Shown in pieces: positions 13,489 to 34,528 of a stretch of 64,000 bases of DNA. The position numbers and the translations under genes were made by a program. Source of the DNA: Planctomycetota bacterium (GTDB lineage Bacteria; Planctomycetota; JAMOSO01); the NCBI GenBank assembly GCA_027063065.1, contig JAMOSO010000001.1, forward strand, positions 9,128 through 73,127. The letters run 5' to 3'. Under the pieces are notes generated by a model that was not told where the DNA came from, made no database searches, and saw nothing but the letters and a program-made list of their open reading frames with translations. The stretch's first letter is position 1. Every line of letters starts with the position of its first letter.

Positions 13489-13495
13489 AAACTAC

Positions 13496-14249: not shown

Positions 14250-15254
<1,005 letters not shown>

Positions 15255-16654: not shown

Positions 16655-16730
16655 TATGCAATAAAGCCTGTTAGTAATAATAAAAAACTTTATACTGCCA
16701 TTTTTATTAAAATTTAACAAAGAGAGAATT

Positions 16731-17024: not shown

Positions 17025-17671
17025 AACCACCAAACCCGCTTACGATATTGATTGTAAGCGGGAAAATTTTTTATTAACTTCAACTCTTCCCTGCTAGCAC
17101 GGTAAGATTGGCATAAAACAAACGTCAAAAATATAAACATATTAAAAAAACTAAAACGATATAAACCTATACCTAAAGCACCAAAAAACGAACCAATATA
17201 CATGGGATGACGCATAAACCTATAAATGCCTTTTGTTACTAACTCACGTGCCTCAGTCATAATAGAAAAACTGCGTCTAAGATAAAAAACACCGACTATT
17301 TGGATTGACAAGCCAATAATCAATAACAAAACACACAAACTTTGTAACTGTGGCTGGGTTACAGGTGCTGGCTTAAAGCTATACGGGCTCAATGCAAAAG
17401 GCAACATTGCAGTACCTAATGGGTAAATAGTCTGCCAAAAACCAACAGCCCTATCTACAGCTTTTAACCTAGTAATATAAGCAATAATAAATAGCAAAAA
17501 TTGAGTGTTTTCTAAATACCATAATAAAGGCATAGAATAACTGTGCAAATAACCGAAACGGTAATAAATCCAATAAGTAAAAAATAAGCCACCTATTATG
17601 CGCCCTATCAAATCCCACCGACTAAGCCAGTTAAATGGTATGGCCAATATATTAAATAACTTATCTAACAT
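17021..17671 (-). CDS. Membrane methyltransferase of the ICMT / phospholipid methyltransferase family
   Basis: 216 aa, polytopic. C-terminal RHPMYIGSFFGALG motif typical of isoprenylcysteine carboxyl methyltransferase-like enzymes. Confidence 0.7.
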   Translation of the reverse strand: MLDKLFNILAIPFNWLSRWDLIGRIIGGLFFTYWIYYRFGYLHSYSMPLLWYLENTQFLLFIIAYITRLKAVDRAVGFWQTIYPLGTAMLPFALSPYSFKPAPVTQPQLQSLCVLLLIIGLSIQIVGVFYLRRSFSIMTEARELVTKGIYRFMRHPMYIGSFFGALGIGLYRFSFFNMFIFLTFVLCQSYRASREELKLIKNFPAYNQYRKRVWWF

Positions 17672-17716
17672 TTTAAACGTTTAAAAGTTAAATATACCTA
17701 ACCAACCTATAGTCTA

Positions 17717-18715: not shown

Positions 18716-18826
18716 AGTATCTCCAGAAGCTATATTTATAACATAAAAACTATTTATAATATCACTATATCGCTAATATTTCAATTATCCTAAAAAATAT
18801 TCATCACACTTCACTTAAAATCAAAT

Positions 18827-20452
18827 TTACAAAATAGGCACCCAATAACATTGGATATTATTAGGCATAAATTGCAATAGTTTATTTAATGCTTCTGCAT
18901 TGGATATTTTAACAGCATATAAATTTGCCGATATAAATTTATCTTGCATCATTATTGGTGATTGAATAAACACATTTGCCATATTCCATACAGATCCAAT
19001 TTGATGATGAACCTTCTCGACAGAATTAGATATCAAAATATCATTTATAAAAAACAATAAAGGAAAAGACACCTCCTCAGCACATCTAAAACGCATTAAA
19101 GACAAACTAATAAAATTATAATTATCTATAAAATTAGATGTCACTGGCACAGACTTATCCACCGTAAAAACAATCTCATTGCCTGTACTAAATTGAAATA
19201 ATGATATCGAGGCTACACTACCATGTGCATTCACTAAAGTAATAGGCAACGATTTTTTAAAATTAACCATCAATGCTTTTGTATTATTTATTATCAAATC
19301 ATTATGACCATAAAAATTAGCACATTTACCATCGTGAACAGGTATTAAATGATAGCTTAATTGCTTTTGGTTTTTTTGATTAATTATATTAATAATTTTC
19401 TTATAGTCCGCTTGTAATGCCCACTTATGCTCTAATACAGAAACATTAATAAATTGATACAGCAAAATAACTAAAGATAAAGCCTCAAACACATATTTTA
19501 TCTTCCCATCTAAATTAAAAATAAAAATATATAATAAATACACAGTAATTGGCACAATATATATGTATACTCTTGCGGGTCCAAAATGCGACATAAGTGC
19601 CACAACTATAGCAACCCATAATACTCCCACAAAATAAAATGCAACAAATCTTGTTTTAACACTTATCGCACTCATTAAGACCAAAACAACTATAGGTAAA
19701 CCTATAACAGATTTAAGTATTAATATTCCATTAGTTATCAATAAAGAAAAATCCGTTACAACACTTTGTTGCTGAGCTAAAAATAAAATATGTCGATAGA
19801 AATACACTACCACTAAAATTATAAAACACGGCAAAATAACATCTAACCATTTACCTTGTTTTTGTTTAACTTCCGCTACATATATATAGCCCAAAATTGG
19901 CACAATAAACAAAAATGCAACCAATAAGGTTAACTGTGATAGTAAGGTTAATAAGCACAACACCACTGTTCTTTTATTACAGGCTTGATATGTTAATAAT
20001 AGTAAAAACAAACAGACCTCTAAAACAACATAAGAATAAGGCCTAGCCATATGAGAATAATGCACTAATATTGGTGATGTAATACAAAATAAAGCCACAC
20101 ATATAGAATAAACATTATGCTTTGTTCTGCGCCAAAAGGCATAATACATAACCAAAGGGGTAACACAACCAGCTAAAAAATTAGGAAATCTATACCAAAA
20201 CTCTTGATGGACACCTTGCATAAACCACAAACGATTAAACGCATGAGTTAAAGGTGGATAATTAGAAAAAATATCCGAAAATAATATTCCAAAAAAAGAT
20301 GAATCTGGATAGTCTTGCAATGGCCAGATTTCATCATACTCTAAGCCTCTAAACATTCCAGAAATACGCACCATAAATGATATGCACAATAACAATAAAT
20401 ATATAACAAATGTATGCTTTGTGAACAGTGTTTGAAGTTTAGCTAACATCAA
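18827..20452 (-). CDS. Polytopic membrane protein, GT-C (ArnT/PMT, GT39-like) glycosyltransferase candidate
   Basis: 541 aa. About 10 or more TM helices in the N-terminal 340 aa, with an early-loop RGLEYDEIW (DE-containing) motif, then a soluble C-terminal domain. The start overlaps the stop of the upstream Wzy_C gene. Confidence 0.5.
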   Translation of the reverse strand: MMLAKLQTLFTKHTFVIYLLLLCISFMVRISGMFRGLEYDEIWPLQDYPDSSFFGILFSDIFSNYPPLTHAFNRLWFMQGVHQEFWYRFPNFLAGCVTPLVMYYAFWRRTKHNVYSICVALFCITSPILVHYSHMARPYSYVVLEVCLFLLLLTYQACNKRTVVLCLLTLLSQLTLLVAFLFIVPILGYIYVAEVKQKQGKWLDVILPCFIILVVVYFYRHILFLAQQQSVVTDFSLLITNGILILKSVIGLPIVVLVLMSAISVKTRFVAFYFVGVLWVAIVVALMSHFGPARVYIYIVPITVYLLYIFIFNLDGKIKYVFEALSLVILLYQFINVSVLEHKWALQADYKKIINIINQKNQKQLSYHLIPVHDGKCANFYGHNDLIINNTKALMVNFKKSLPITLVNAHGSVASISLFQFSTGNEIVFTVDKSVPVTSNFIDNYNFISLSLMRFRCAEEVSFPLLFFINDILISNSVEKVHHQIGSVWNMANVFIQSPIMMQDKFISANLYAVKISNAEALNKLLQFMPNNIQCYWVPIL

Positions 20453-22611
20453 TATTTTAGTATAAGATTGGCTAATGCCTGTTGTTTTTTTGTTAATATC
20501 GATTTGTAACGTTTATTTAGTTGAGCGATATGCGCATGGGCCTCTTGATGATTACCCAAAAACAAACTGGCTTGGGCGATGCCCAAAATTACATCAGGAC
20601 GTGTATCACCTTTTTTTAAAAATTGTTTATATAAATTATAAGCATATTGCCATCTATGTAAGCGTAAACTTGTTTTAGCTAAAAAGTATTTTAAAGGCTC
20701 GTTAAATTTTTCTAACTCTGTTTGATATATTTTATCTAACAATTGGTTTGCTTTGTTATTATTTTTAGTAAACAATGCCACTTTTAACAACCCTACCCAA
20801 CCTTGCGAACTGTACGGGTATAATTCTGCGTGTTTTACATAAGCTTTTATAGCCTTATTAACATATCCGTACTTTAAATTAGTATCAGCTATTAACATAT
20901 CAGTAGCTTTTGGCTTATCAGCACATTTAAGCAAATTGATAATCAAATCTTGCGGATAAGTACGTGCCACCATAATTTTAATAAATAATTGTTGTGATTT
21001 AGTAAAGTGCAATAGAAGCTTGTTTATATCATCAGATTGCGCTACTAGACTAGCTATTGAATCTCTGTAAAAATAATCGTGATAATCTCGAAACATTTCT
21101 GTTAACAATGGCACCAGCCTTGCAGATAAATTTTGCGTATTTAAACCCATTTGTGGAACAATTTTTGAAATATTAACATAATGAGGTGAAATTTGCTCTA
21201 ATTCATTTGCTATACTTAAAGCTTGGCTTTCTTGATGAAGCTGTCGATAAAGCCCAAATAAACGCCACCGTAAAAAAGATTCTTTGTGTAAAGAATTTAA
21301 TTTATTTTTAGATAACTCTAACGATTTAACTGCCTGTTGTAATTTACCTAAGGAAGCCAAATTTTGCCCTTGATAATAATGATAATGTGCTACTCCAGAG
21401 CGAATAACCAAATATATACATAAACAAATCACAGGTATTAAAATTAATTGCTTTAATTTAACATACCTAATATTAACAACAAAATTACCACCTACTATAC
21501 TTAATAAAATGGCATAATTAGTCCAAAAAACTATAGGAAAAAACTCATAACGCATAGCCCCACTTAAGCCTATAGAAAATACCCACGCCAAATGTATTAA
21601 ACAAATAGGAATAGCCGTTTTTACAGGATGCCGATAAAACAAAAATAATGGCAATAAAATAATTGCTAAAAAAACACTTAGACCAACTATGCCTAAAGAG
21701 CCTAACAACTGGGCGTATTCATTATGAGCTGTATTTAAAATTAAACCAAAACCAGGTAATAAATACCAATCTGCTGGGGCAAAACTATTAAATAAGCCAA
21801 TATAACTACCAGCACCATGACCTAATAAAGGTGCGTTTTTACATAAACTTAAAGCTGTTTGGATAGTAGTATACCTAACTGCCTGAGACACGCGTAAATA
21901 ATTTAAAACACTCTCATTTAAAGATAACAAAACAGCAAAAACAATTAGCAATAATAAAATAATATAAAAAATGTTTTTTTTATGCCTAGTTATATATGCT
22001 AATGCAAAAATAATACTAGAAAGCACAAACGCTAACGATGAGGATTGACTACGACATTTAGCAAATGCAAAAGATAAAACTAAAAGTGCAACCACATAAA
22101 GCACATATTGAATTTTAGAAGTATTGATATTTTTTATATTATATAATTGAAAGACAACACAGATTATCGGCGCAATTAAATAAGCCCCAAAAATATTAGG
22201 ATTACCCAATGGCCACATTAAACGGTTTAAATTATGATAATATAAAAAGCCTAACCCCATTAACGCCGTCAATACACCACCTAAAATAATAGCGTAAATG
22301 ATATGCTTAATATTGATAGCAGAAAATTTTAATACACTAACTATTGCTATCCATAAACCAATAAATAGCAAATCGACAGACCTATGCCAAGATGCCAAAG
22401 CAATCTCGCTGTAAAATACAGAATAAATGTTTAGTAAAGCAAATATAAAAAAACCAATACTTAGAGCATTTATTTTACGACTATGCAACAAAGAGCCGGT
22501 AGCTACAATCACTAAACATTGAAACACCAATTGCTTTACATATATATAACTATATAAATCAACAAGTATAAACGATGGAATTAACGCAAAAATAAAAAGA
22601 ATATTGGGCAT
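20449..22611 (-). CDS. Wzy_C (O-antigen ligase / O-oligosaccharyltransferase-like) membrane domain fused to C-terminal TPR repeats
   Basis: 720 aa. The N-terminal ~400 aa is polytopic and carries NTAHNEYAQLLGSLGIVGL (Wzy_C signature). The C-terminal ~300 aa is TPR-like helical repeats. Confidence 0.7.
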   Translation of the reverse strand: MPNILFIFALIPSFILVDLYSYIYVKQLVFQCLVIVATGSLLHSRKINALSIGFFIFALLNIYSVFYSEIALASWHRSVDLLFIGLWIAIVSVLKFSAINIKHIIYAIILGGVLTALMGLGFLYYHNLNRLMWPLGNPNIFGAYLIAPIICVVFQLYNIKNINTSKIQYVLYVVALLVLSFAFAKCRSQSSSLAFVLSSIIFALAYITRHKKNIFYIILLLLIVFAVLLSLNESVLNYLRVSQAVRYTTIQTALSLCKNAPLLGHGAGSYIGLFNSFAPADWYLLPGFGLILNTAHNEYAQLLGSLGIVGLSVFLAIILLPLFLFYRHPVKTAIPICLIHLAWVFSIGLSGAMRYEFFPIVFWTNYAILLSIVGGNFVVNIRYVKLKQLILIPVICLCIYLVIRSGVAHYHYYQGQNLASLGKLQQAVKSLELSKNKLNSLHKESFLRWRLFGLYRQLHQESQALSIANELEQISPHYVNISKIVPQMGLNTQNLSARLVPLLTEMFRDYHDYFYRDSIASLVAQSDDINKLLLHFTKSQQLFIKIMVARTYPQDLIINLLKCADKPKATDMLIADTNLKYGYVNKAIKAYVKHAELYPYSSQGWVGLLKVALFTKNNNKANQLLDKIYQTELEKFNEPLKYFLAKTSLRLHRWQYAYNLYKQFLKKGDTRPDVILGIAQASLFLGNHQEAHAHIAQLNKRYKSILTKKQQALANLILKY

Positions 22612-22626
22612 TTATAAATTGTAACC

Positions 22627-22662
22627 AAAAAAAAACGGCGAGCAACAAAGGCTCGCCGTTTT
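22627..22662 (-). terminator. Rho-independent terminator after pseudopilin gene 1
   Basis: Stem cggcgagc (22636-22643) / gctcgccg (22651-22658) with a 7-nt loop. On the minus strand it is followed by a U9 run (A-run 22627-22635). Confidence 0.7.
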
Positions 22663-22683
22663 AATAATATTTAAATTTAAATA

Positions 22684-23307
22684 TTAATTAGTTTCACCTG
22701 GAGAGAAAAATTTATCCGCTCCAATCATTGTAGCATCTGTAGGTGCCGCACTAGATGCAGCAGAAGTATCTATATCTTCTTTAATATCAGTAACTTTTTT
22801 AACTGAAGCATCTGTTTTTAAGACATGAAAATATTCATTACCTTCACCCCAAAATGATGGATAATCAGAAATATGAACTGTAGTTTTAATATTTACAGAA
22901 GCAGCTAAAGTTAAAGTATTTAATGCATAATTAGAATTGATGACTTTTGTAGGAGCTGTGACACTGTCTAACTCAGGAACTTTTAAAGCACCACGTTGAG
23001 GCGATTCAAAAGTTTTTACAGATAAGTTTTGATCATTCATTAAACATGCAAATGCTTGACCTACGCCATTGTCGCTAGCATCAACATTAGCTTTAGCCGC
23101 TTCTAAACCAGGAAACACATCTTTGTTATCCATAGTGTACATAGCCATTGAACTTGCCATTGCTTTAAGATTTGACATAGATTTAACAGCATTGGCTTTT
23201 TCTTTTGCCTTGCCAAGTGATGGCAATAACATTGAAGCCAAGATTGCGATAATCGAAATTACAACTAGCAATTCGATAAGGGTGAAGCCTTTTAGTAGTT
23301 TTTTCAT
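22684..23307 (-). CDS. Prepilin-type N-terminal cleavage/methylation domain protein (PVC-type pseudopilin, DUF1559-like)
   Basis: 207 aa. MKKLLKGFTLIELLVVISIIAILASMLLPSL prepilin leader plus hydrophobic helix. C-terminal FHVLKTDASVKKV motif. Strong SD (aggagg) upstream. Confidence 0.85.
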   Translation of the reverse strand: MKKLLKGFTLIELLVVISIIAILASMLLPSLGKAKEKANAVKSMSNLKAMASSMAMYTMDNKDVFPGLEAAKANVDASDNGVGQAFACLMNDQNLSVKTFESPQRGALKVPELDSVTAPTKVINSNYALNTLTLAASVNIKTTVHISDYPSFWGEGNEYFHVLKTDASVKKVTDIKEDIDTSAASSAAPTDATMIGADKFFSPGETN

Positions 23308-23342
23308 ACTACCTCCTAAAAAAAAGAAAAAAGTGTAAATAA

Positions 23343-23371
23343 AACATATACCACATATCTGATATTGTCAA
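23343..23371 (-). promoter_or_regulatory. Sigma70-type promoter candidate for pseudopilin gene 1
   Basis: Read on the minus strand: TTGACA (23371-23366), 17-nt spacer, TATGTT (23348-23343). It lies about 35 nt upstream of the ATG at 23307. Confidence 0.45.
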
Positions 23372-23408
23372 TACATAATTTAAAATATAGTATGCTCTAT
23401 CGTACAAG

Positions 23409-24026
23409 TTAAGGCTGTGTTCCTTCTGTGGCAAATAATCCCGTGCCTATCAATAACGAATCTGACACCTTATTAGTGCTTACACCTACGCCAATTTCAT
23501 CCATATTTACAATTTTTTTTACAGAAGCATCGCTATATAAAGCATGAAAATAAGATGAGCCTGCTTCCCAAAAACTAGGCCTGTCCATTATATGAATGGT
23601 AGTCGACAAATTTATCCCCTTAGATAATGTATTTGTATTAAATACATAACTAATATTAGTAATAGAAGTAATTGGATCATTACCAACAACTACGGGACGT
23701 TTTAAGCGTGCCTTTTGAGGACACTCTAATACATCATTGCTTAAATCTTGATCATTTAATAAAACCCTAAATGCATCATCCACATCTGAAGATGCTGTAG
23801 TATTAGCCTTAGCTGTAGTTAAACCAGGATAAATGTCATTATGATCCATTAAATACATAGATACTGCACTATCTAAAGCCTTTAAATTGGACATTGATTT
23901 GGATGCATTAGCCTTTTCTTTAGCTTTAGTCAAAGAAGGCAATAACATAGACGCCAAAATGGCAATGATAGAAATCACCACCAACAACTCTATCAAAGTA
24001 AATTTTTTAATTAACAAACGTTTCAT
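23409..24026 (-). CDS. Prepilin-type N-terminal cleavage/methylation domain protein (paralog of 22684-23307)
   Basis: ORF 23409-24056; preferred start ATG 24026 (MKRLLIKKFTLIELLVVISIIAILASMLLPSL). C-terminal FHALYSDASVKKI. Collinear with the neighbouring paralog. Confidence 0.85.
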   Translation of the reverse strand: MKRLLIKKFTLIELLVVISIIAILASMLLPSLTKAKEKANASKSMSNLKALDSAVSMYLMDHNDIYPGLTTAKANTTASSDVDDAFRVLLNDQDLSNDVLECPQKARLKRPVVVGNDPITSITNISYVFNTNTLSKGINLSTTIHIMDRPSFWEAGSSYFHALYSDASVKKIVNMDEIGVGVSTNKVSDSLLIGTGLFATEGTQP

Positions 24027-24179
24027 ACCAACCACTAGTTTTAAAATCGGGCACAACTATAATAAAAAATATTTCACATTCAATTAAAAGTATAAATAAA
24101 AGTATTTAAATAGCAGTTGACAAATTTATATTCCACCTTAAATTAATACTGCTTTTAAAATCACTATTTGGAGAGGTCT

Positions 24180-25724
24180 ATGTTTGCAACTTTATGCGCT
24201 ATTACATTACATGGGGTAGATGCTATCGAGGTGGCTGTTGAGCTTGACGCGAGCAATGGGATGCCTTCATTTCAAATTGGCGGATTAGGTGATTCTGCAA
24301 TCAAAGAAAGCAAACAAAGGGTGATTTCTGCTATTAAAAATTCTGGATATAAAATACCACCCAGACGCATTACAGTAAATTTAGCACCAGCAGATTTAAA
24401 AAAAGAAGGCACTTGCTATGATTTGGCCATTGCTATTGGATTATTAATAGCGACTAATCAGATTGAAATATTAATAAAAGGCAAATTTTTGATATTAGGC
24501 GAATTGTCATTAGACGGTAAATTACGTCCAGTATCTGGTATTTTACCCGCAGCTATTATGGCTAAAAAACAACAATATGATGGATTAATTCTGCCTAAAG
24601 AAAATCAATCTGAAGCAAGCGTTGTAGAAGATATCAAAATAATTGGAGTCAATAATTTGCTAGAAGCAATTAAATTTTTATCTAATGAATTTATACCCAA
24701 CACAACAGAAATACATAATATTATACCAAACAACGAAAACTACCCTGTAGATTTTAGTGATATTAAAGGACAAGAAGGTGTTAAACGTGCATTAACAATT
24801 GCAGCAGCTGGAGGGCATAATTTAATTTGTATAGGCCCTCCTGGATCAGGCAAAACAATGTCTGCTAGAGCCATACCATCTATTTTGCCAAGCTTAAGTA
24901 AACCAGAAATGCTAGAAACCAGTAAAATTTATTCTGTGGCTGGATTACTACCCACTAATTATCCATTAATACATACTAGGCCATTTAGAGCCCCACATCA
25001 CTCAATATCAGAAGCCGGCCTAGTCGGTGGCGGTAGCAATCCTATGCCAGGAGAAGTAAGTTTGTCACATAATGGCGTATTATTTTTAGATGAACTAACC
25101 GAATTTAATCTGCGTACATTAGAATCATTACGCCAACCGCTAGAAGATAAAAAAATTACCATATCAAGAGCTAAACGGACTGTAACATTTCCATCAAATA
25201 CTATGCTATTAGCCGCCATGAATCCATGTCCTTGTGGTTTTTACGGTTCTAATTCCAATAGCTGTACCTGTACAAGCAATCAAATACAAAAATATCTGAG
25301 TAAAGTATCAGGGCCTTTGCTTGATCGTATTGATATGCACATAGAAGCCCCTCCTGTAAACAAAACTGATTTATTAAGCAATACTAAATCAGAAACATCG
25401 GCATCAATAAAAATTAAAGTAGAAAATGCCAGAAATGTGCAATTAAAACGATTTCAGAACCAATCTAATATGCAAATACATAGTTGTTATTCTAATTCGG
25501 ATATGAATCCTCGTCAAATTAAACAATTTTGCTTATTAAATACACAAAATACTAAATTAATGGAAAAAATGTTTGATAATTTAAACTTTTCGGCGCGTTC
25601 ATACAATAAAGTCTTAAAAATAGCACGTACTATAGCCGATTTAGACGATTCAAAAAATATAGAACAAAATCATTTATTAGAAGCCATTCAATATAGAACT
25701 CTAGACAGAAAATATTGGGGTTAA
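24180..25724 (+). CDS. comM: Mg-chelatase-like AAA+ ATPase YifB/ComM
   Basis: The ORF track begins at TTG 24168. The ATG at 24180 sits 5 nt after a ggagagg SD. Lon-protease-like N-terminal domain, Walker A GPPGSGKT, Walker B GVLFLDE, ComM C-terminal domain. Confidence 0.9.
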   Translation: MFATLCAITLHGVDAIEVAVELDASNGMPSFQIGGLGDSAIKESKQRVISAIKNSGYKIPPRRITVNLAPADLKKEGTCYDLAIAIGLLIATNQIEILIKGKFLILGELSLDGKLRPVSGILPAAIMAKKQQYDGLILPKENQSEASVVEDIKIIGVNNLLEAIKFLSNEFIPNTTEIHNIIPNNENYPVDFSDIKGQEGVKRALTIAAAGGHNLICIGPPGSGKTMSARAIPSILPSLSKPEMLETSKIYSVAGLLPTNYPLIHTRPFRAPHHSISEAGLVGGGSNPMPGEVSLSHNGVLFLDELTEFNLRTLESLRQPLEDKKITISRAKRTVTFPSNTMLLAAMNPCPCGFYGSNSNSCTCTSNQIQKYLSKVSGPLLDRIDMHIEAPPVNKTDLLSNTKSETSASIKIKVENARNVQLKRFQNQSNMQIHSCYSNSDMNPRQIKQFCLLNTQNTKLMEKMFDNLNFSARSYNKVLKIARTIADLDDSKNIEQNHLLEAIQYRTLDRKYWG

Positions 25725-26112
25725 CAATATTCAATCTAAAAAGTCTTTAATTAGTACGAAATAATCCCATTATAGCCTAAAAAAATAAATTTATAGTTAT
25801 ACACCGCCTATCAATCCAAATTATCGGCAAAAATACTTGACCTAAGCGATTTATCTGATTTAATCATCAGACGAGATTGATTGACTGCCAAAATTGTATT
25901 GTAAAAAAACCGATTTAAACGATGGGTTTTACCGATGATTAAGATTTAATTACAAGATGTTTATGATTGAGTTTTACTTTGTAATAATACTTAAATTCAA
26001 TAATGGCAATAGTTTATCAAAAATCAATGAAATATATCAGCGTTCCTGTTATAGTAATAGTATTAGTAGTTAAAAGAGGTAATAGTAACTATTCTTTTTT
26101 TATAAAATAAAT

Positions 26113-27951
26113 ATGAATAAAAAACAATTAACATTTATGGATAATATTAATACTAATGGCCGTAAAGAGCCATTAACTATTATTAAAGCTAATAATTTAG
26201 AAAATAGCACTATAACTTTTGATGAAATTTTACTAGGTCAAACTTCGATTGTAGCTCCGGAAGGCGCTGTACTTGAAAGACGTGTCAATCCTGATACATC
26301 ACAAGAATATTTAGTTAAACGATTTAACCATGTAGTTGGAACACATAATGGTGATTTAAGATCAGTTGAAATAGAAATAGAAACACTACCCAGTCAGGGC
26401 TTAACAGACTATTTTGATGATAAAGTATTATTAACTCTACATTCTTTAGCTTTAGAAAAAGACTCTTATGAGTATTACACAAATATTTCAGAAATTTGCG
26501 CCGCTAGAGATTGGCCTTTAAATGGTGAATATATTGCTAAAGTACGCAAAAGCTTAGAAAAACTAGAAGGTACTTCTATTGCCAGTGATCAATTTGTTGA
26601 TCCTGATACTAACGAATCAATTAAACAAAGAATAAATTTATTATCTCGTTATGTGCGTTTTAAAGACGAACAGCGTTCAACATCAATCAAAAAAGACGGT
26701 ATTTTATATGATGATGAAATTAAATTTAAAAAAGATTTTTTAATTGAGATAAATCAATTTTTTTTTAAGAGTTTGCAAAAACAAAAAATAAAACTTGATA
26801 TTAAGGTTTTAAATTCATTTAGAAATAAAACAGTTGAAAAATTATATCGCTTTTTAAATACAATGTTTCAATTAAAATCAGAAATTGAAATAAATCTAAC
26901 AGATTTATGTGAAACTTTAGGCATTACTGTGCCTAAGTATATTTCTAATATAAAACGTAATATTTATGTACGTTATATCAAAGAAATAGAAAAAAATAAT
27001 ATAATCAAACCTTTTGATATTAAAACTAATTATTATAAACATAATAAAATTTGGCGTGTGAAATTTGAACGTGGTGAATTTTACGAGTCTCTTGAAGATA
27101 GATGGGCAATGAAACCAGCTTTATTTAATATTTTTAATTATTTGCACGCCGAATTAAAATTTAAAAAACATGAAGCTCATACTTTGATGGGTAAATATGC
27201 CAATGAGCTTATTCAAGAAAATATCAATTATTTGCGTTTATCATTAGAAATTACTCCAAATGTGATTAGATATCCAAAAGCTTGGATGAAAAAATCATTA
27301 GAAAACAATTGGGATCATAGTTTAAATTTACAAATCTTAAGAGAGTTAAAACACAGTAAAACACCATTAACACAATATCAGCAATCTTGGGAAAAACGTG
27401 ATTTTAATGAAGAAGAAAAACAAGCATTTGAACGTTGTACTATTAAATTTAAAATACCAGAAAACATAGTTATTCCTTGGATTAAAACCCATGCTAATTT
27501 TGATTATATCAAACAATTAGATAAGGTTTTTGATTTATTAAAACCTGAAGAACAAAAATATGATTATTTAGCTACTATGATTAGACATCGAGACTCCAGA
27601 GTTTGGCGTATAACAATACCTGGCAGTGAGCAAGAACAAGTTGCCAATCGTATACAAAAACAGAAATATCAATCTTTGTTTGCTAATGAAATTGTAATTG
27701 AACCAGATGACATAGAAACATCAGATAATATCACACCTGTCGCCCCTCCTATGCCCAATATATTAAATTTAATGGACGCCTTAAAACAACATTTAGGAGA
27801 AGAATATAATAAATTGTTTAATGAAACATATATGGCTGCGGAACCTGTTTTAGTTTTAGGTGGCATTGATAGCCCAGAGGCAATTAGAGATGCAATTTTA
27901 ATTCAGATGCAGAAAACATATTTGCCAAATTTTATTACGCAAAATGATTAA
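26113..27951 (+). CDS. Large hypothetical protein whose N-terminal half resembles RepA/TrfA-type (winged-helix) replication initiators; function unverified
   Basis: 612 aa. Segments LPSQGLTDYFDDKVLLTLHSLAL, ISEICAARDWPLNGEYIAKVRKSLEKLEGTSI and FRNKTVEKLYRFLN...INLTDLCETLGI follow, from memory, the pattern of replication-initiator-protein-A/TrfA families. The C-terminal ~280 aa is unassigned. No SD precedes the ATG. Confidence 0.5.
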   Translation: MNKKQLTFMDNINTNGRKEPLTIIKANNLENSTITFDEILLGQTSIVAPEGAVLERRVNPDTSQEYLVKRFNHVVGTHNGDLRSVEIEIETLPSQGLTDYFDDKVLLTLHSLALEKDSYEYYTNISEICAARDWPLNGEYIAKVRKSLEKLEGTSIASDQFVDPDTNESIKQRINLLSRYVRFKDEQRSTSIKKDGILYDDEIKFKKDFLIEINQFFFKSLQKQKIKLDIKVLNSFRNKTVEKLYRFLNTMFQLKSEIEINLTDLCETLGITVPKYISNIKRNIYVRYIKEIEKNNIIKPFDIKTNYYKHNKIWRVKFERGEFYESLEDRWAMKPALFNIFNYLHAELKFKKHEAHTLMGKYANELIQENINYLRLSLEITPNVIRYPKAWMKKSLENNWDHSLNLQILRELKHSKTPLTQYQQSWEKRDFNEEEKQAFERCTIKFKIPENIVIPWIKTHANFDYIKQLDKVFDLLKPEEQKYDYLATMIRHRDSRVWRITIPGSEQEQVANRIQKQKYQSLFANEIVIEPDDIETSDNITPVAPPMPNILNLMDALKQHLGEEYNKLFNETYMAAEPVLVLGGIDSPEAIRDAILIQMQKTYLPNFITQND

Positions 27952-29071
27952 ACGGGTTGGTATTTTTAGCTCAACAAGAGCTGATTATAGTTATTTGAAA
28001 CCTGTTGCCAAAGCTTTGCAACAATTAAAAATAAAAGTGGTTTTTTTTATTACTGGATTACATTTACGTCAAGATCGAGGCAATAGTATTAAATATATCC
28101 AATCAGATGGTTTTGTTTTTTATACTATTACCAATCAGTTGCATACTGATGAGGCAATTAATCAAGCTGGTATAAATGGCGATATATTAAAACAATTGCC
28201 GATGTTATTGTCAGAAAAGAAAATACAATTTCTTTTATTATTAGGTGATAGAAGCGAAATATTAACCGCGGCTTTATCGGCTATGCACATTAATGTTGCC
28301 ATTGGACATATCCATGGTGGTGATTTGTCTTATGGAGGCGGTATTGATGATAGTATTCGTCATGCCGTTACAAAGTTAGCTCATGTGCATTTTCCTGCTA
28401 GTAACGATAGTGCTAGACGTTTATTGAGGTTGCAAGAAGCACCATGGAGGATTATAAAAGCAGGTGAAACAAGTTTAGAAAATATTAAGCAATCTGATAA
28501 TACATTTTTACAACGGTTTAATTTACCTCAACCCTATGCCGTATTATTGCAACACGGCGAGGCATTACAGGCTGATAAGTCTGTAGAGCAGTTTAAAAGT
28601 GTATATACTGCCCTGTGTAGTTTTGATTTACATAAGGTTGTGATTTTGCCTAATGATGATCCTGGTGCAAAAAAAATGATTGCATTTATAAAAAGTCAAT
28701 CCAAGACATCTGCAACAACCGTTTTTAACACCCTTGCCACCGCCGATTTTTTTGATTTACTTAAAAATAGTAAATTTTTAATTGGCAATAGTTCTTCGGC
28801 TATAATTGAAGCACCCTATTTGGGCGTGCCAGCCATTAATTTAGGTATTCGCCAACAAGGGCGTAAAACTTATGTGTCTACATTACACGGTGATTTTAAC
28901 ACAGCAAATATAGTTGAGCTTATTGCCGAGGTTTTGACAAATAGGCACAAGCTTAAAACTCGTGCTGTTGCCAAACGTTTATCTAATCGACCATTGGCAA
29001 GTAAAATTATTGCTCAACATATTAAAAGTTTACGATTAGATAAATCGTTTTTTCAAAAAGTTATGTCTTAA
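27944..29071 (+). CDS. neuC: UDP-N-acetylglucosamine 2-epimerase, hydrolysing type (NeuC-like)
   Basis: 375 aa. GDRSEILTAALSAMHINVAIGHIHGGD and DDSIRHAVTKLAHVHF are NeuC/NnaA-type signatures. The start overlaps the upstream ORF by 8 nt. Confidence 0.8.
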   Translation: MIKRVGIFSSTRADYSYLKPVAKALQQLKIKVVFFITGLHLRQDRGNSIKYIQSDGFVFYTITNQLHTDEAINQAGINGDILKQLPMLLSEKKIQFLLLLGDRSEILTAALSAMHINVAIGHIHGGDLSYGGGIDDSIRHAVTKLAHVHFPASNDSARRLLRLQEAPWRIIKAGETSLENIKQSDNTFLQRFNLPQPYAVLLQHGEALQADKSVEQFKSVYTALCSFDLHKVVILPNDDPGAKKMIAFIKSQSKTSATTVFNTLATADFFDLLKNSKFLIGNSSSAIIEAPYLGVPAINLGIRQQGRKTYVSTLHGDFNTANIVELIAEVLTNRHKLKTRAVAKRLSNRPLASKIIAQHIKSLRLDKSFFQKVMS

Positions 29072-29747
29072 TTAAATAATCTAAAATTTGATTCATTATT
29101 ATATTTAATTGCTGATAATCTTTGGCGTTAGCATTTAAGATTTGTGCTTTGCTTTGGATATATGGGTTGTCAATTAATTCATTAGCACAGTGTTGGCATA
29201 TATCACTAGCTGAAGTTGGTGTCGTCTCTAAGTGAAATTGTAAGGCAATAATTGATGATGAAATTTGAAATGCCTGATTTTTGCAGATATGACTACTAGC
29301 TAATAGAGTGGCGTTTGTAGGTAAATCAAATGTTTCGCCATGCCAATGAAATGCTTGAAAATTTTCAGGAAATTGAAAAGCAGTTGTTTTGTGTGGGTGG
29401 GCAGTTACAGGAAACCAACCAATTTCTTTGTATTGACCTTGATATACATTTGCTTTCATCACGTTAGCTATTAATTGAGCTCCTAAACAAACCCCTAAAA
29501 TAATTTTATTTTTTTTAATAGCGTTCAATATAAATTGTTTTTCTTCTTTGAGCCATGGATAATCGGTTTCGTCATAAATACTCATGGGTCCACCCATAAT
29601 TATTAAAAAGTCAACATCGTCTAAATTTGGCAATTTTTGATTGTTATAAAGATGGGTATAGCTAATGCTATGCCCGTCTTTATTTAAATAATTTTCAATA
29701 CTGCCAAGTCCCTCAAAGGCTATATGTTTTAAGCAATGTACACGCAT
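29061..29747 (-). CDS. Class I glutamine amidotransferase-like protein (GuaA-GATase-like)
   Basis: 228 aa. Nucleophile elbow GVCLGAQL and downstream FHWHGETF / LQFHLE His-Glu region. Confidence 0.8.
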   Translation of the reverse strand: MRVHCLKHIAFEGLGSIENYLNKDGHSISYTHLYNNQKLPNLDDVDFLIIMGGPMSIYDETDYPWLKEEKQFILNAIKKNKIILGVCLGAQLIANVMKANVYQGQYKEIGWFPVTAHPHKTTAFQFPENFQAFHWHGETFDLPTNATLLASSHICKNQAFQISSSIIALQFHLETTPTSASDICQHCANELIDNPYIQSKAQILNANAKDYQQLNIIMNQILDYLIKT

Positions 29748-29748
29748 A

Positions 29749-30678
29749 TTATTTATTATTCATATTCCAAAGGATGTTTTGCCCCTGTCCCATCATGGTT
29801 TTGGGCAGTTGACCGTTCCATCTTTGTGCACGGATATAATCTACCAATGTTTTTGATTGTTGTAGTGCTTGGGCTTTTTTGCGCATTGCTTCGGCTTCGG
29901 CAGCGCCTTTTAGTTTGATTGCTTCGGCTTCGGCAATGGCTTCTATTTTGATGGAATAAGCTTTGCCGTCTGCAGTTGCCATGGTTGCTTCGCGTTTGGC
30001 GTTAGCTGTATTTACAGCACGTTGTGCTTCTAGTTTTTGACGTTCTAGGCGATGCATTTCAGCTGCGGCAAGGTTTTTTTCAGTTTGTTTGGTTTCGATA
30101 GATTGAATATATTTTTGTGGCAGTCCTAAATCCTCAAGTTGGGCAGAATCAAGTTTGACGGGATAATCTGCCATTGCCTGTTGTAGCTCTTCCTCTATTT
30201 GTGTAATTACTTTGTTTCTGTTTTGTATGATTTCTTCTGCTTTATAATGAGCCAAAGCATCTTTGGCAGCAGAGCGTAATTTAGGGTCTAAAATTCTAGT
30301 TTCAAATTGATCTAATCCTCCATAGCTTTTAAATAATTCAAATGCTAAATCTCGTTGAACAGTCCAGTTAATAGACACTTTGGCTGTGATAGGCATTTGT
30401 TCGTGAGTGGATGCGCTTAGTTTTTCTAAATTTTTACGTGTTCTAATTTCTAAAATCACTACAGAGTCAACTAAAGGGATTTTCATATGTAGCCCGGGGT
30501 TTACTTGTTTGGTTGCTTCTCCAAATCTTTTGACAATACCCACATGCCCTTCTTGCACAGTGAATAAACTTTGGAAGATTAAAATTGCCAGTATGATAAT
30601 TATTAAAAAGCTAATAGACGCGCCTTTGCCTTTATGGGCTATCACTTGAAAATCAGGCATATTATTTTGAACAGTCAT
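29749..30678 (-). CDS. SPFH/Band-7 (prohibitin-like) membrane protein
   Basis: ORF 29749-30759. Preferred start is ATG 30678 (MTVQNNMPDF), preceded by a ggagaaac SD. One N-terminal TM helix, SPFH domain (EGHVGIVKRFGE...), and an Ala/Glu-rich coiled-coil tail. Confidence 0.85.
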   Translation of the reverse strand: MTVQNNMPDFQVIAHKGKGASISFLIIIILAILIFQSLFTVQEGHVGIVKRFGEATKQVNPGLHMKIPLVDSVVILEIRTRKNLEKLSASTHEQMPITAKVSINWTVQRDLAFELFKSYGGLDQFETRILDPKLRSAAKDALAHYKAEEIIQNRNKVITQIEEELQQAMADYPVKLDSAQLEDLGLPQKYIQSIETKQTEKNLAAAEMHRLERQKLEAQRAVNTANAKREATMATADGKAYSIKIEAIAEAEAIKLKGAAEAEAMRKKAQALQQSKTLVDYIRAQRWNGQLPKTMMGQGQNILWNMNNK

Positions 30679-30915
30679 TTGTTTCTCCTTAAAAAAATTT
30701 TGTCTTAGATTACAGCTTTGCAAGCTTAATGCAAGGTGCATTCGGTACGGGTAAAGCAAGCCCTGTTTGATATGACGTAAGTTTGCTCTTGAGGTTAGTT
30801 GGGTATTTTAATCGATACAAATAGTAGTTGGATGTAAACTTGAAACTTTAAAAAACAGTATAAGATAGAGTATGGCTGTTGTTTAAAGTTATTTGGTTTT
30901 GCAATTAAGGTTATA

Positions 30916-30931
30916 GTCCAACGCGTTGGAC
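30916..30931. repeat. 16-bp perfect palindrome GTCCAACGCGTTGGAC, copy 1
   Basis: Read directly from the sequence. An identical copy lies at 30954-30969. I spotted no further copy by eye in the window. Confidence 0.9.
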
Positions 30932-30936
30932 AGTGG

Positions 30937-30950
30937 GTTTCACGTGAAAC
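30937..30950. promoter_or_regulatory. parS: parS centromere-like site (core GTTTCACGTGAAAC)
   Basis: 14-bp perfect palindrome identical to the core of the conserved chromosomal parS consensus TGTTNCACGTGAAACA. It sits 62 nt upstream of the parA ATG. Confidence 0.8.
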
Positions 30951-30953
30951 TTT

Positions 30954-30969
30954 GTCCAACGCGTTGGAC
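30954..30969. repeat. 16-bp perfect palindrome GTCCAACGCGTTGGAC, copy 2
   Basis: Identical to 30916-30931. It ends 6 nt before the putative parA -35 element. Confidence 0.9.
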
Positions 30970-30975
30970 TAAAGT

Positions 30976-31004
30976 TTGCATGTTGCCGAGCTTGAGCTTA
31001 TAAT
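30976..31004 (+). promoter_or_regulatory. Sigma70-type promoter candidate for parA-parB
   Basis: TTGCAT (30976-30981), 17-nt spacer, TATAAT (30999-31004). The parA ATG at 31012 lies 7 nt after the -10 element, with no SD. Confidence 0.55.
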
Positions 31005-31011
31005 CTTAAAT

Positions 31012-31830
31012 ATGTATTCTAAAAAAATAACGTTTATTAATCAAAAAGGTGGTGTAGGTAAAACTACATTATGTGTTAATGTTGCCGCTGATTTAGCTAT
31101 GCGTAATTATAAGGTTTTATTGGTTGATACTGATCCGCAAGCTAATGCTACTACTGTTGTGCATGAAGCTCCAGAAGGGGCGCCAACTATTGCAGATGTG
31201 ATGTTGGGTGATGTGAGTGCTGCCGATGCGGTGGTAACTGCACGCAAAAACTTAGATTTATTACCTTCTGGTGAAAATATGTGGAATTATTCATTTCAGG
31301 TAGTGCAACAAAATTTAGGTGATTTGCTAGGCCGTTTTCGTGAGGTTATTGATTCGGTTGATAAAGATTATGATTTTATTATTTTTGATACAAATCCATA
31401 TCCTGCTACTTTATGTATATTGGCTTTGGCTTTTTCTCAGCATAGTATTACGCCAATGTTTCCAGAGCCTTTTGCATGGGATGGGTATTCGACTTTATCG
31501 GGTTTAATTAATGATATTCGCAAGGATTTTAATCCAGACATACAACCTTTGGGTATCGTGGTAAATAACTTTAATGGATCAAAAAATATACATAAGGAAG
31601 TTTGCATGGCATTGTTTGAATCTGTTCCAGATGAAGTTTTTAAATCGGTCATTAGAACAAATAGTAACTTATGTAAGATGGGAAATGAATTAAAAACTAT
31701 TTTCGAAATAGAGTCTCCCAGCGGTAAAGGAAATAAGGATTTTTCGGCTTTGACGGATGAAATGTTAGATAAACTGTGTATGCCGATACGTAAAATGGAT
31801 GATGATATAATTAAAGCCCTGCAAAATTAG
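31012..31830 (+). CDS. parA: Chromosome partitioning ATPase ParA/Soj
   Basis: The ORF track starts at TTG 30976, inside the promoter. The ATG at 31012 gives [19 protein letters not shown] (deviant Walker A) and [13 protein letters not shown]. Confidence 0.9.
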
Positions 31831-31838
31831 GAGGTTTA

Positions 31839-32717
31839 GTGGCTGATTTTTCTGAAATAACCAAACAATTTAAAGAGAGTCAATCAGGCAAAAACAAACC
31901 AGCTCAGGGGCGTATTGCCGCTAAAGTGGCAAAGTTTAAACAGGATAAAATTGCTTCTGAATTTAAATTGGTTGAACTTAGTTCTATTGCACCCGATCCT
32001 AATCAGCCTAGGCGTATTAAGGATACCAAGAGTCGTGATTTAAAGTCCTTAGCTAAAACAATTAAAGAAAAAGGTGTTTTAGAACCTTTGCTTGTGCGTG
32101 AAACAGCAACAGGGTTTTTGTTAGTAGCTGGTGAAAGGCGTTATTGGGCTAGCCATATAGCTAAATTACGTGCTGTGCCTGTTAGGGTTGTGCATCTTAA
32201 TAGCCAAGAAATAGCCGAGGTACAATTAATTGAAAATATTCAGCGTAAGGATTTAAATCCATTAGAGCGTGCGAGAGGGTTAAAAAATATTGCCGATTCT
32301 GGAGGTAGCACAAAAGATATTTATAAACGAGTAGCAATTTCTCGCTCTTTATATTATGCGTTACTTTCTTTATTAAATTTACCAGAAGAAATACAGGATA
32401 AAATAGATCAAAGCTATGCTAACGAAAATGAGGGTATACCCCTTAGAGAATTAATTGAATTGGCAAAGATTAAAGACATTAATAAATTAAAATCAGCTTT
32501 TGAAGATTTAGATAGTGGCACTAGTTTAATAGAAGAACGACAAAAAAATAATCCTAAAGCATCAACTATTGCTAAAAATAAAGTTAAAGATTTTCAAAGA
32601 GTCTCTAATAAACAAGGGGTTGAAATATTATTGCGTATTCCAGCAGAGATGAAACCAAATGAGCTAGATTTAGAAGATATTGATGCGTTGTGGCAAGAGG
32701 TGTTAAATAAATTATGA
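31839..32717 (+). CDS. parB: Chromosome partitioning protein ParB/Spo0J
   Basis: 292 aa with a GTG start after an aggagg SD. ParB-box LEPLLVRE...FLLVAGERRYWAS and an HTH region. The N-terminus is Lys-rich. Confidence 0.9.
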   Translation: MADFSEITKQFKESQSGKNKPAQGRIAAKVAKFKQDKIASEFKLVELSSIAPDPNQPRRIKDTKSRDLKSLAKTIKEKGVLEPLLVRETATGFLLVAGERRYWASHIAKLRAVPVRVVHLNSQEIAEVQLIENIQRKDLNPLERARGLKNIADSGGSTKDIYKRVAISRSLYYALLSLLNLPEEIQDKIDQSYANENEGIPLRELIELAKIKDINKLKSAFEDLDSGTSLIEERQKNNPKASTIAKNKVKDFQRVSNKQGVEILLRIPAEMKPNELDLEDIDALWQEVLNKL

Positions 32718-34501
32718 TTATAAAATGGTGTAAAAATATTAAATCTTTAATTGTTTTGTTGCTAATAAGTAACGTGGCACTGGCACAAGATTTTCCTAGT
32801 AAAAACTGGCATGAATCAGTTGATGAACTTGCGTCAACAAATGCAATAAAGGGGGGGGCTTTATCGATATTTGCAGGTCAAAGTCCAAAAAGTTTTAATT
32901 ATTATTTAGATACTAATTCATTGACGGCACAAATTTTTGGTTTTATGTTTGAAACTCTCTTAGGTGCTAACTCTGTTACTATGCACGATGAACCAAATAT
33001 TGCATCTAAATGGCAAATAAGCCCTGATAAGCTTACTTTTAAGTTTTGGATTGACCCCGCCGCAAAGTGGAGTGATGGACAACCCATTACTGCTAGTGAT
33101 GTATTATTTACTTATGATACTATCTTAAATCCAAAAAATATGACAGGCCCACATAAGGTTGGCTTGGAAAGGTTTAAAAGGCCAGTAATTATCAATGATA
33201 GTCAGATTGTCTTTACAGCAAAAACTATTCATTGGTCAAACTTATCAGTATTAGGTGGTTTACAAATTTTGCCCAAGCATATATTGGCAAATAAGGATTT
33301 TAATAAAATTAATTTTGAGTTTCCCGTAGTGTCTGGCCCTTATAAATTGGGCACACATAATGAAACCATTAGTTTAACGATGGAACGTAATCAACAGTGG
33401 TGGGCTCAAAACAAAATGAGTAATCGTTATAAATATAATTTTGATAAATTGATATTTAAATTTTATGCTGATCGCAATAATGCTTTTGAAGCTTTTAAGA
33501 AGGGTGATATCGACTTATTTGCTGTATATACAGCAAAGCGTTGGGTTAAAGATGCTGTCGGCAAGAGTTTTGATAAAAATTGGATTATAAAACAACGCAT
33601 ATATAATTTTAAACCAGTTGGGTTTCAGGGCTTTGCAATGAATATGCGTAGAGAACCGTTTAATAATTTAAAGCTTAGAAAGGCTTTGTCTTTGTTGTTA
33701 AATCGTGAAAAGATGAATACACAATTGATGTATTCGCAATATTTTATGTTAAATTCTTATTATCCTGATATTTATGATTTGAAACATAAAAATTCCAACA
33801 AAAAAATCGTCTTTAATAAAAGTTTGGCGAGAAAATTATTAAAAGAAGCTGGTTGGGTGGTTAATCCAGCGACTGGATTACAAGAAAAGGACAAAAAGCC
33901 TTTAGTGATTAAGTTTTTAACTAGAGACGCCAGTGCCAATCGTTTTTTAGCGATTTATCGGGAGGACTTAGCCGATGTTGGTATCCAATTAAAAATTATT
34001 CAAAAGGATTGGGCTTCATGGGCTAAAGATATGGATTCATATAATTTTGATATGACTTGGGCTGCTTGGGGGGCGGGTATTCGTAAAAATCCCGAGGCAA
34101 TGTGGCATTCTAAAGAAATTAATCGTCCGTCTGGCATTAATATTACTGGGTTTAAAAATACGCAAGTAGATACGTTAATTAATAAACAAATGGGTATTTT
34201 TGATATGGATAAGCGTCATGAAATTTGTCGTCAAATAGATAAAATAGTATATTCGCAATATCCTTATGCGTTACTTTGGATGAATAGTTATACGCGGTTA
34301 TTGTATTGGAACAAATTTGGCACTCCTAAAACTGTTTTAAGTAAATATGGCGGTGAATCATCAGCGTATGTTTATTGGTGGTTTGATGAAGATAATTTAT
34401 TAGATTTAAAAGATGCTCAAGCAGATGATGAGGCTTTACCAGATATGCCTTTGGATGTGGTGTTTCCAATGTGCGCTAAAGATACGCTTAGCAATCGTTA
34501 G
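32714..34501 (+). CDS. ABC transporter substrate-binding protein, family 5 (peptide/opine/nickel; YejA/OppA-like)
   Basis: 595 aa. Signal peptide IKSLIVLLLISNVALAQ and family-5 SBP architecture. The start overlaps the parB stop (ATGA). Confidence 0.85.
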   Translation: MIIKWCKNIKSLIVLLLISNVALAQDFPSKNWHESVDELASTNAIKGGALSIFAGQSPKSFNYYLDTNSLTAQIFGFMFETLLGANSVTMHDEPNIASKWQISPDKLTFKFWIDPAAKWSDGQPITASDVLFTYDTILNPKNMTGPHKVGLERFKRPVIINDSQIVFTAKTIHWSNLSVLGGLQILPKHILANKDFNKINFEFPVVSGPYKLGTHNETISLTMERNQQWWAQNKMSNRYKYNFDKLIFKFYADRNNAFEAFKKGDIDLFAVYTAKRWVKDAVGKSFDKNWIIKQRIYNFKPVGFQGFAMNMRREPFNNLKLRKALSLLLNREKMNTQLMYSQYFMLNSYYPDIYDLKHKNSNKKIVFNKSLARKLLKEAGWVVNPATGLQEKDKKPLVIKFLTRDASANRFLAIYREDLADVGIQLKIIQKDWASWAKDMDSYNFDMTWAAWGAGIRKNPEAMWHSKEINRPSGINITGFKNTQVDTLINKQMGIFDMDKRHEICRQIDKIVYSQYPYALLWMNSYTRLLYWNKFGTPKTVLSKYGGESSAYVYWWFDEDNLLDLKDAQADDEALPDMPLDVVFPMCAKDTLSNR

Positions 34502-34528
34502 CCAGTAAGAATATTAATTGTTTAATTA

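Follow-up and report, generated by a model that had tools for sequence, protein, structure and literature searches.

What is marked by the point at which a stretch of Planctomycetota DNA turns from C-rich to G-rich along its top strand? We addressed this question in a 64-kb segment of contig JAMOSO010000001.1 (hereafter the window; all coordinates are those of the window unless another locus is named, position 1 being its first letter; G+C content 33%), in which the switch lies beside a gene, here named rep, for a divergent initiator protein of the iteron-plasmid type. Bacterial chromosomes are held to start replication with DnaA at oriC, and the secondary chromosomes of plasmid descent are exceptions to this rule. 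According to a recent preprint (10.1101/2025.08.05.668638), the only genomes known to lack dnaA are those of some cyanobacteria and of reduced endosymbionts. In our assessment, the switch is fairly likely to mark a bidirectional plasmid-type (iteron/Rep) origin, at ~25.7-27.4 kb, on an essential chromosome-like replicon. A Rep-type origin is supported because the switch coincides with the initiator gene, with a repeat-dense AT-rich spacer and with a parS-parAB partition locus, and because the coincidence recurs at a second locus, L011, on another contig.

Position and strength of the switch

The cumulative difference between G and C, computed base by base, has a single minimum in the window, of -1147 at 25868, within the intergenic spacer at 25725-26112, and a 2-kb profile agrees with it. 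None of 2000 shuffles of 500-bp blocks attained the observed excursion of 1148 (shuffle mean 435, maximum 795). The AT skew reverses in the opposite sense, with its cumulative maximum at 28036 and a side effect of t = -7 at third codon positions; this makes the G-rich arm T-rich as well, which is usual for leading strands. The initial annotation of this DNA had deduced the switch from hand counts over single 60-nt lines and had predicted an extremum of cumulative skew in the 25-31 kb region. The GC minimum and the AT maximum both fall in that region, and the seven line counts that it quoted were all exact on recount.

Gene orientation was controlled for by scoring the third codon positions of 60 open reading frames (ORFs) on the top strand, with weighted regression. 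The left arm (1..25724), which is C-rich and also A-rich, has a third-position GC skew of -0.30 in the + strand genes and -0.27 in the - strand genes. The corresponding values for the right arm (27952..64000), G-rich and also T-rich, are +0.35 and +0.22. In the regression, the side of the switch has an effect of 0.279 (t = 11.9), and that of gene orientation, 0.035, is not significant. The third-position skew thus keeps its sign in genes of both orientations on either arm, as the hand counts had led the annotation to assert. The change point, from a two-segment fit to 4963 third-position G/C sites, is at 26748 (25705-27354 at 95%, by bootstrap). This point and the cumulative minimum both lie within the spacer or the upstream half of rep.

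The arms continue beyond the window. Overlapping contigs of other assemblies extend the C-rich arm by at least 7.6 kb past the left edge, and the G-rich arm runs on for at least 7.5 kb past the right edge, with a pooled third-position skew there of +0.275. Only one change of skew sign occurs in these ~79 kb (-7.6 kb to +71.6 kb). The raw skew is negative once more at 48-57 kb, where minus-strand flagellar genes lie; we attribute this dip to a coding-strand effect, the third-position skew there being mostly near zero or positive. Four genes of this segment, flhB, fliR, fliQ and fliP (53967-56872, -), have a third-position GC skew of -0.21 to +0.01, while their neighbours on the arm are all clearly positive. 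Their flat skew could reflect the codon usage of membrane proteins, or a segment that was inverted or acquired more recently. An assembly chimera at the switch was considered and ruled out, because two further assemblies (ENA k141_165760 and Logan SRR7968107_20683) run collinear with the window across the junction, from 22.8 to 38 kb, and the spacer shows a single mismatch.

The initiator gene, its spacer and the partition locus

The change from C-rich to G-rich has the polarity of an origin, as the initial annotation had recognized, and the surroundings of the switch bear this out: within ~1 kb lie an initiator gene and a repeat-dense AT-rich spacer, and a parS-parAB locus is nearby. The gene, rep (26113..27951, + strand), encodes a protein of 612 aa, which profile comparison and an AlphaFold model identify as a divergent winged-helix (WH1-WH2) initiator of the iteron type. 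Its stop codon overlaps the start of a gene for UDP-N-acetylglucosamine (UDP-GlcNAc) 2-epimerase, and the G+C content drops to 28% over rep. The match of Rep to Pfam PF10134 (RPA, Replication initiator protein A) is sub-threshold, at 17.8 bits for a cut-off of 27 (E 0.0025). A word-indexed search of 5.8 billion proteins returned Rep itself and one 52%-identical protein, and a profile of six sequences gave the same outcome. Among 1.84 billion cluster representatives, an exhaustive search with HMMER (E < 0.001) returned 62 homologues, of which 56 match PF10134, 17 match Rep3_N and four match TrfA. When the profile of Rep's four closest sequences was compared by hhalign with 31 RPA-family proteins, the two aligned with a probability of 99.9% (E 3e-35) over 353 columns, which cover residues 28-404. 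Identity of Rep to the RPA proteins is 15-25%.

The structural evidence agrees with the profiles. The AlphaFold model, built on the 62-sequence alignment, has a mean predicted local distance difference test score (pLDDT) of 82, with values mostly >90 over residues 40-410 and a dip to ~65-70 at 180-210; the C-terminal part (~residues 330-612) is helical. The best 14 matches to this model in a Foldseek comparison with the PDB were all to RctB domains 2-3 (E 7.5e-7) or to RepE, and the next match had E = 0.8. The TM-score of the fold match to RepE54, normalised to the target, is 0.58. An initial model from two sequences had been discarded for its pLDDT of 53 and weak fold matches, and a profile search of PDB sequences with Rep gave no match. 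The gene is named rep because profile comparison and structure both place the protein among the iteron-type initiators. On this predicted similarity, Rep belongs remotely to the superfamily of winged-helix initiators of the iteron type, and it stands outside PF10134 by Pfam's threshold.

In three of the 62 RPA-family homologues (proteins P0005-P0062, alignment A2), there is a further match to PF11638, the N-terminal domain of DnaA (best E 3e-9); in these proteins, a plasmid-type initiator would be fused to a part of DnaA. The DnaA N-terminal domain contacts the DnaB helicase in E. coli. The domain matches are compatible with members of the family handling the helicase directly. A scan of the genome collection with the Rep profile found no relative, and the sole plasmid of PLSDB with a detectable relative of Rep is from Isosphaeraceae (Planctomycetes), where the gene is annotated as 'replication initiator protein A'. 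Plasmids of Planctomycetes are reported to have RPA (PF10134) as their main initiator, which was identified functionally in a plasmid that the paper names pBTK45 (bioRxiv 10.1101/2024.01.22.576637).

The proposed origin DNA is the AT-rich intergenic spacer of 388 bp (25725..26112) that separates rep from its left neighbour comM/yifB (24168..25724, +), an intact Mg-chelatase-like AAA+ gene with a full-length match to TIGR00368 (626 bits). In addition to the skew minimum, the spacer holds the window's densest cluster of the hexamer GATTDA, with 11 copies within 240 bp (25731-25970) compared to a window average of 3.7 per kb. The + strand carries eight of the copies, at 25848-25965, and the other three, at 25731, 25811 and 25860, lie on the - strand. 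The variant GATTGA occurs five times in the spacer, with 0.2 expected, and is enriched also 5' of the 52%-identical homologue, on contig L001. We regard the hexamers as a candidate binding-site cluster only, and their enrichment as suggestive, because the motif is short and AT-rich and was picked post hoc. Beside the cluster lie AT-rich stretches at 25761-25800 (82% AT) and 25961-26040 (78-82% AT), and the AT content climbs to 90% at 26081-26120, which spans the rep start codon. The genome as a whole has 67% AT, and other 60-mers are equally AT-rich. Comparison of 9-mers among five rep-linked spacers yielded noisy AT-rich words only, and single-strand folding of the spacer was no more stable than that of shuffles (z = 0.67). 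The tRNA and Rfam scans of the window found nothing, and hence no RNA element or tRNA-linked island at the switch. A consensus scan gave a candidate sigma-70-like promoter of rep at 26027..26055 (+), of the form ATGAAA-17-TATAGT with a TG before the second hexamer. This candidate is weak, and promoter-like sites are no more numerous than in shuffles. After the candidate promoter, GTAATAGTA is directly repeated, at 26054 and 26079, and the two copies might be an operator.

The partition locus is found 5 kb to the right of the skew minimum. Its centromere region (30916..30969) consists of a canonical parS, GGTTTCACGTGAAACT, at 30936-30951 (general form tGTTTCACGTGAAACa), with a palindrome copy on each side. 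A lone parS match at three or fewer mismatches arose by chance in 27 of 100 shuffles; the weight of the site comes from its position, 25 bp 5' of the annotated parA start, and not from its count. The flanking palindromes, two perfect 16-bp copies of GTCCAACGCGTTGGAC at 30916-30931 and 30954-30969, are the only two in the window, for 0.04 expected. The partition ATPase gene parA (30976..31830, +; Pfam AAA_31 and CbiA, NCBIfam ParA_partition) probably has its true start at the ATG near 31012. It is followed by parB (31839..32717, +), for the parS-binding partition protein (ParB_N and HTH_ParB; TIGR00180 at 115 bits for a cut-off of 58).

The manner in which such an origin would operate can be outlined by analogy with RepE, pi, TrfA and RctB. 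The winged-helix Rep, as monomers, would bind the candidate repeat cluster in the spacer 5' of its own gene. It would then melt the adjoining AT-rich DNA and recruit the host helicase, perhaps via its helical C-terminal part. By the same analogy, it probably represses its own promoter. Forks would depart both ways, and over evolution the top strand would have become C-rich on the left and G-rich on the right, whatever the orientation of the genes. The top strand would thereby be the lagging strand of the leftward fork in the left arm and the leading strand of the rightward fork in the right arm. ParB loaded at parS would, together with ParA, segregate the duplicated origin region.

The kind of replicon and the related rep loci

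Genes for translation and RNA metabolism in the window and its extensions are rsmG, rpmH, rplU, rpmA, obg and the RNase E/G gene (rne). Metabolism and the envelope are represented by gap, fabH, alr, several aminotransferases and an oligopeptide ATP-binding cassette (ABC) transporter, and motility and uptake by the fliPQR-flhBA-flhF-flhG-fliA export operon, type IV pilus genes and comEC. Neither integrase nor transposase nor tRNA was found close to rep in the protein annotation and tRNA scan of the window. We consider the DNA chromosome-like, and not a dispensable plasmid, because it has core genes and none of these three marks near rep. An integrated mobile element was ruled out by the lack of integrase and tRNA and by the intact comM. 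Since the contig bears rpmH, rplU, obg, gap, fabH and the flagellar export genes, the replicon is taken to be an essential one with a plasmid-type origin. Two traits of a chromid are present, namely replication and partition of plasmid type (an RPA-superfamily rep with parABS) and core genes. In function, we take the replicon for a chromosome or chromid under the control of a plasmid-type initiator, as chromosome 2 of Vibrio is under that of RctB.

Some individual genes merit description. The gene for ribosomal protein L34, rpmH (4059..4217, -), lies ~22 kb from the switch, alone, without dnaA or rnpA beside it. It was identified through the annotation of its neighbours; its L34 has an unusual N-terminus, which a regular-expression motif scan missed. 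The ORF of 237 aa upstream of it (4287-5000) has no family match. The window's left edge cuts rsmG (gidB), of which the N-terminal 151 codons are present (1..454, -). Two tandem paralogous pilin-like genes (22684-23307 and 23409-24056, -) have the N-terminal methylation motif FTLIELLVVISIIAILASMLLPSL, of a type that we take to be associated with PVC-group bacteria. Together with the match in the Isosphaeraceae plasmid, the pilin-like N-termini hint that the organism is of this group. In the first of the two genes, near 22771, an indel distinguishes the window from the other two assemblies. A 33-nt tandem repeat at 29885-29952 (2.1 copies, 85% match), in an SPFH/band-7 gene, encodes a repeated alanine/glutamate-rich segment. 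The segment at 39185-48224 has a G+C content of 25-30% and genes for glycosyltransferases, methyltransferases, deacetylases and flippases; from this content, it looks like a surface-polysaccharide island, and it keeps the positive third-position skew of its arm. A scan of the genome collection with FlhA found nothing closer than 48%.

The locus that repeats the arrangement of the window is L011 (Ga0256837_1000051, a 102.8-kb JGI contig, G+C 33%), the Rep of which is 30% identical to that of the window. The order there is rpsB-tsf-pyrH ... parB-parA (leftward), a 1.6-kb AT-rich spacer and rep (rightward). The flip is clear, and the cumulative skew minimum of L011, at 9769, lies in the spacer between parA and rep. 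Third-position skew is negative in 12 of the 12 genes to the left (-0.06 to -0.82) and positive in all nine to the right (+0.05 to +0.52), with both gene orientations represented on each side of the minimum. The spacer holds a canonical parS and at least nine copies of an 18-bp iteron, TTGWTATTTNRGTRTAAA. This iteron is conserved in L004 (8.5 kb, G+C 50%), whose Rep is 85% identical to that of L011 and which has parS, palindromes and iterons as L011 does; the arrays of the two loci have at least eight copies between par and rep. The palindromes that flank the L011 parS, TTGCGCCAGCGCAA and TTGCGCTGGCGCAA (L011 8413-8547; L004 3864-4102), are kept between the two loci despite an 18-point gap in G+C content, and TTGCGCYRGCGCAA is a parS-flanking palindrome at a paralogous locus. 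The parS-flanking palindromes are G+C-rich and specific to their locus. They might separate par systems that have a common parS core, or act as operators.

Two other loci complete the comparison. On L001 (G+C 50%), which encodes the 52%-identical Rep, the gene is downstream of cmk, plsC and exbD. It sits at the contig end, so one flank only is available, and this left flank is mildly C-rich. On L013 (ENA ERZ27262648 k141_110428, 169.6 kb), rep is at 10001-11833, equivalent to L012 400-2232, and its product is 25% identical to the Rep of the window. It sits among secA, mreD, efp, map and rnhA, with no parAB within 10 kb. Core genes adjoin each copy of rep (rpsB, tsf and pyrH in L011, cmk and plsC in L001, secA, efp and map in L013).

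Do these contigs belong to one organism? The ENA assembly ERZ27262648 contains all three Rep types (window, L011 and L012/L013), and the window and L012/L013 types are found also in Logan SRR7968107. The G+C-normalised tetranucleotide correlations among the window, L011 and L013 are 0.86-0.93, compared to 0.89-0.91 among thirds of the window and 0.02-0.53 for unrelated loci. The homologous genes of the three are limited to Rep (30% and 25%), ParA (29%), ParB (36%) and two domain-level matches, and no housekeeping genes are shared. Other samples supply a much nearer orthologue of each paralogue, 52% identical for the window Rep, 85% for the L011 Rep and 88% for the L012/L013 Rep. We favour a single genome for the three contigs because close relatives so alike in composition should show far more similar orthologues. 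It is likely, from these comparisons, that the Reps of the window, L011 and L013 are paralogous origin modules of one genome. The organism probably has several Rep-type origins, in a multi-replicon or multi-origin arrangement, at least two of them marked by skew minima. Orthologue pairs differ in G+C content, L004 at 50% from L011 at 33% and L005 at 40% from L012 at 32% (Rep 88% identical), and the orthologue of the window Rep itself is on a contig of 50% G+C; it seems that a large shift in G+C content has taken place in the lineage.

Alternative explanations and comparison with known systems

Several observations weigh against a Rep-driven origin at the switch. Repeat searches of the window found no long iteron family (17-22 bp), unlike in L011 and L004, and a scan of the window with the iteron matrix of these two loci gave no site in the spacer above background. 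The GATTDA cluster, a post hoc finding made up of AT-rich hexamers, stays suggestive. Genes co-directional with the proposed forks make up 58% of those in the left arm and 44% of those in the right, which is not a marked bias. No origin-like flip is seen on L004, a short contig on which side and orientation are confounded. L013 has positive third-position skew on both sides of rep and no flip; a Rep of this clade is therefore insufficient for a skew flip, and the L013 copy may be inactive or silent, regulatory, or firing unidirectionally. It is also possible that a deeper minimum or a DnaA-type origin lies elsewhere on the molecule, or that DnaA acts here via unrecognised sites.

A classical DnaA-dependent origin, with DnaA boxes too divergent to recognise and with rep as a bystander or accessory regulator, is in our view improbable. 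It would account for rpmH, rsmG, parA-parB and a canonical chromosomal parS, genes of a primary chromosome's origin region, being nearby, and one near-consensus DnaA box, TTATCCATA, is present at 26136. DnaA boxes differ between phyla, and DnaA is used also by many iteron plasmids and by Vibrio ori2. Against this, no match to the box TTATCCACA with at most one mismatch lies in 25725-26112, and the window as a whole has 16 where 24 are expected. At one or two mismatches, no above-chance cluster was found at the switch or elsewhere in the window, a lineage-specific consensus being possible, and the corresponding spacers of L001, L004, L011 and L012 have no conserved box. A six-frame DnaA-motif scan of the window gave no dnaA, and the ORFs annotated between -7.6 and +71.6 kb include neither dnaA nor dnaN. 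Adjacency of dnaA and dnaN to the origin is common and not universal. Thus the origin-linked genes listed by the initial annotation are present, while the classical DnaA/oriC region that they suggest is not found in these ~79 kb. In addition, a bystander rep fails to explain the 30%-identical paralogue exactly at the skew minimum of L011. The densest run of DnaA-box-like sites in the window lies at 38.6-39.3 kb, at the 434-bp spacer (38751-39184) between the oligopeptide transporter genes and the glycosyltransferase cluster; its seven sites all have two mismatches, a chance-level number, and no skew feature accompanies them.

The switch could, alternatively, be the captured origin of a plasmid or chromid inside a larger chromosome that has DnaA/oriC elsewhere, the window then containing one of at least two active origins. 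We consider this unlikely. One assembly contains all three Rep paralogues, on contigs that share a tetranucleotide signature and have no duplicated housekeeping genes. Two of the three are at skew minima, and fused two-origin chromosomes, which such a layout would resemble, are documented for natural V. cholerae strains (PMC6284228). However, no contig joins two origins, none of the stretches fetched has a switch from G-rich to C-rich of the terminus type, and near rep there is no insertion mark (integrase, transposase or tRNA) and the adjacent comM is intact. It is very unlikely that the switch, instead of being an origin, arose where a recent inversion, another rearrangement or a joining of foreign DNA placed segments of opposite skew side by side. 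Asymmetric inversion produces local skew switches, and the fall in G+C content to 28% makes rep look compositionally distinct. Yet two switches of opposite sign would be expected, and one is seen in ~79 kb. This one coincides with an initiator gene and has parS 5 kb away, the coincidence of initiator and switch is repeated in L011, and the layout of the junction is identical across three assemblies. Of these readings, the plasmid-type origin on a chromosome-like replicon is therefore the one that we prefer.

A stronger form of this preferred reading is conceivable but doubtful, namely that the window represents an uncultured and free-living lineage with flagella but without any DnaA-driven origin, in which the core genome is replicated from several origins with paralogous Reps. 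It is equally doubtful that each such origin has its own RPA-type paralogue, parS-parAB and locus-specific palindromes, on one or several chromosomes. We keep this stronger form in consideration because no dnaA was seen, two paralogous Rep loci are at skew minima, and core genes adjoin all three paralogues, each of which has an orthologue in other samples. None of the papers found in our literature searches describes a free-living bacterium whose chromosomal initiator is of the RPA type, and the accession numbers of the samples appeared in none of the papers searched. The minimum gain is a new initiator family and a new lineage among the few essential replicons with plasmid-type origins. This clade of plasmid-type initiators was previously unrecognised, and few homologues of it exist in a search space of billions of proteins. 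The bidirectional origins that it probably marks would have been in use for a long time and lie on DNA with genes for ribosomal proteins, translation factors and central metabolism, beside a canonical chromosomal centromere. Tools for origin prediction that are keyed to dnaA and DnaA boxes would overlook the origin of the window. If several origins and the absence of dnaA were true of the organism, it would be a test case for the coordination of the cell cycle without DnaA, for keeping apart origins that have a common parS core, and for the evolution of plasmids into chromosomes. It would also be a bacterial counterpart of the archaeal layout of multiple origins, each adjacent to its initiator.

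Among known systems, chromosome 2 of Vibrio cholerae (ori2, RctB, ParAB2) offers the parallel of an essential replicon with core genes that is started from a plasmid-type origin. RctB is likewise a tandem winged-helix initiator whose gene abuts the origin, with a dedicated parABS adjacent. In contrast, there is no detectable sequence similarity between RctB and the window Rep, which belongs with the RPA (PF10134) superfamily, and neither the 12-mer and 39-mer sites nor the DnaA box or Dam-methylation logic of the Vibrio origin was identified in the window. The parS of the window is of the canonical chromosomal sequence, whereas that of Vibrio chromosome 2 is replicon-specific. The window also differs in having the ancestral origin-region genes rpmH and rsmG nearby, and perhaps in being one of several such origins.

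The RPA initiators of plasmids (pBTK45 and the plasmids of Planctomycetes) are similar to Rep in ~350 homologous residues, in an adjoining AT-rich spacer with repeats and in their linkage to parAB. Rep differs from them in being very divergent and longer, with a helical C-terminal extension, and its gene is located at the skew minimum of a chromosome-like contig among housekeeping genes. With RepE/ori2 of the F plasmid and with other iteron plasmids (pSC101, R6K, RK2, P1), the shared features are the WH1-WH2 fold and, in L011 and L004, the iteron arrays; the window, unlike these plasmids, shows short GATTDA repeats only. The polarity of the skew minimum, the AT-rich spacer, and parS-parAB, rsmG and rpmH in the neighbourhood are features of DnaA/oriC origins, from which the window differs in the class of its initiator and in having no dnaA, dnaN or cluster of DnaA boxes. 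In Sulfolobus, each of the origins oriC1-3 lies beside its own initiator gene (Orc1/Cdc6 or WhiP). If the three contigs are one genome, the paralogous initiators, each beside its own candidate origin, would resemble the multi-origin chromosomes of Sulfolobus. The latter belong to the archaeal domain and use initiators of the Orc1/Cdc6 and WhiP families, whereas the loci described here are known from separate contigs.

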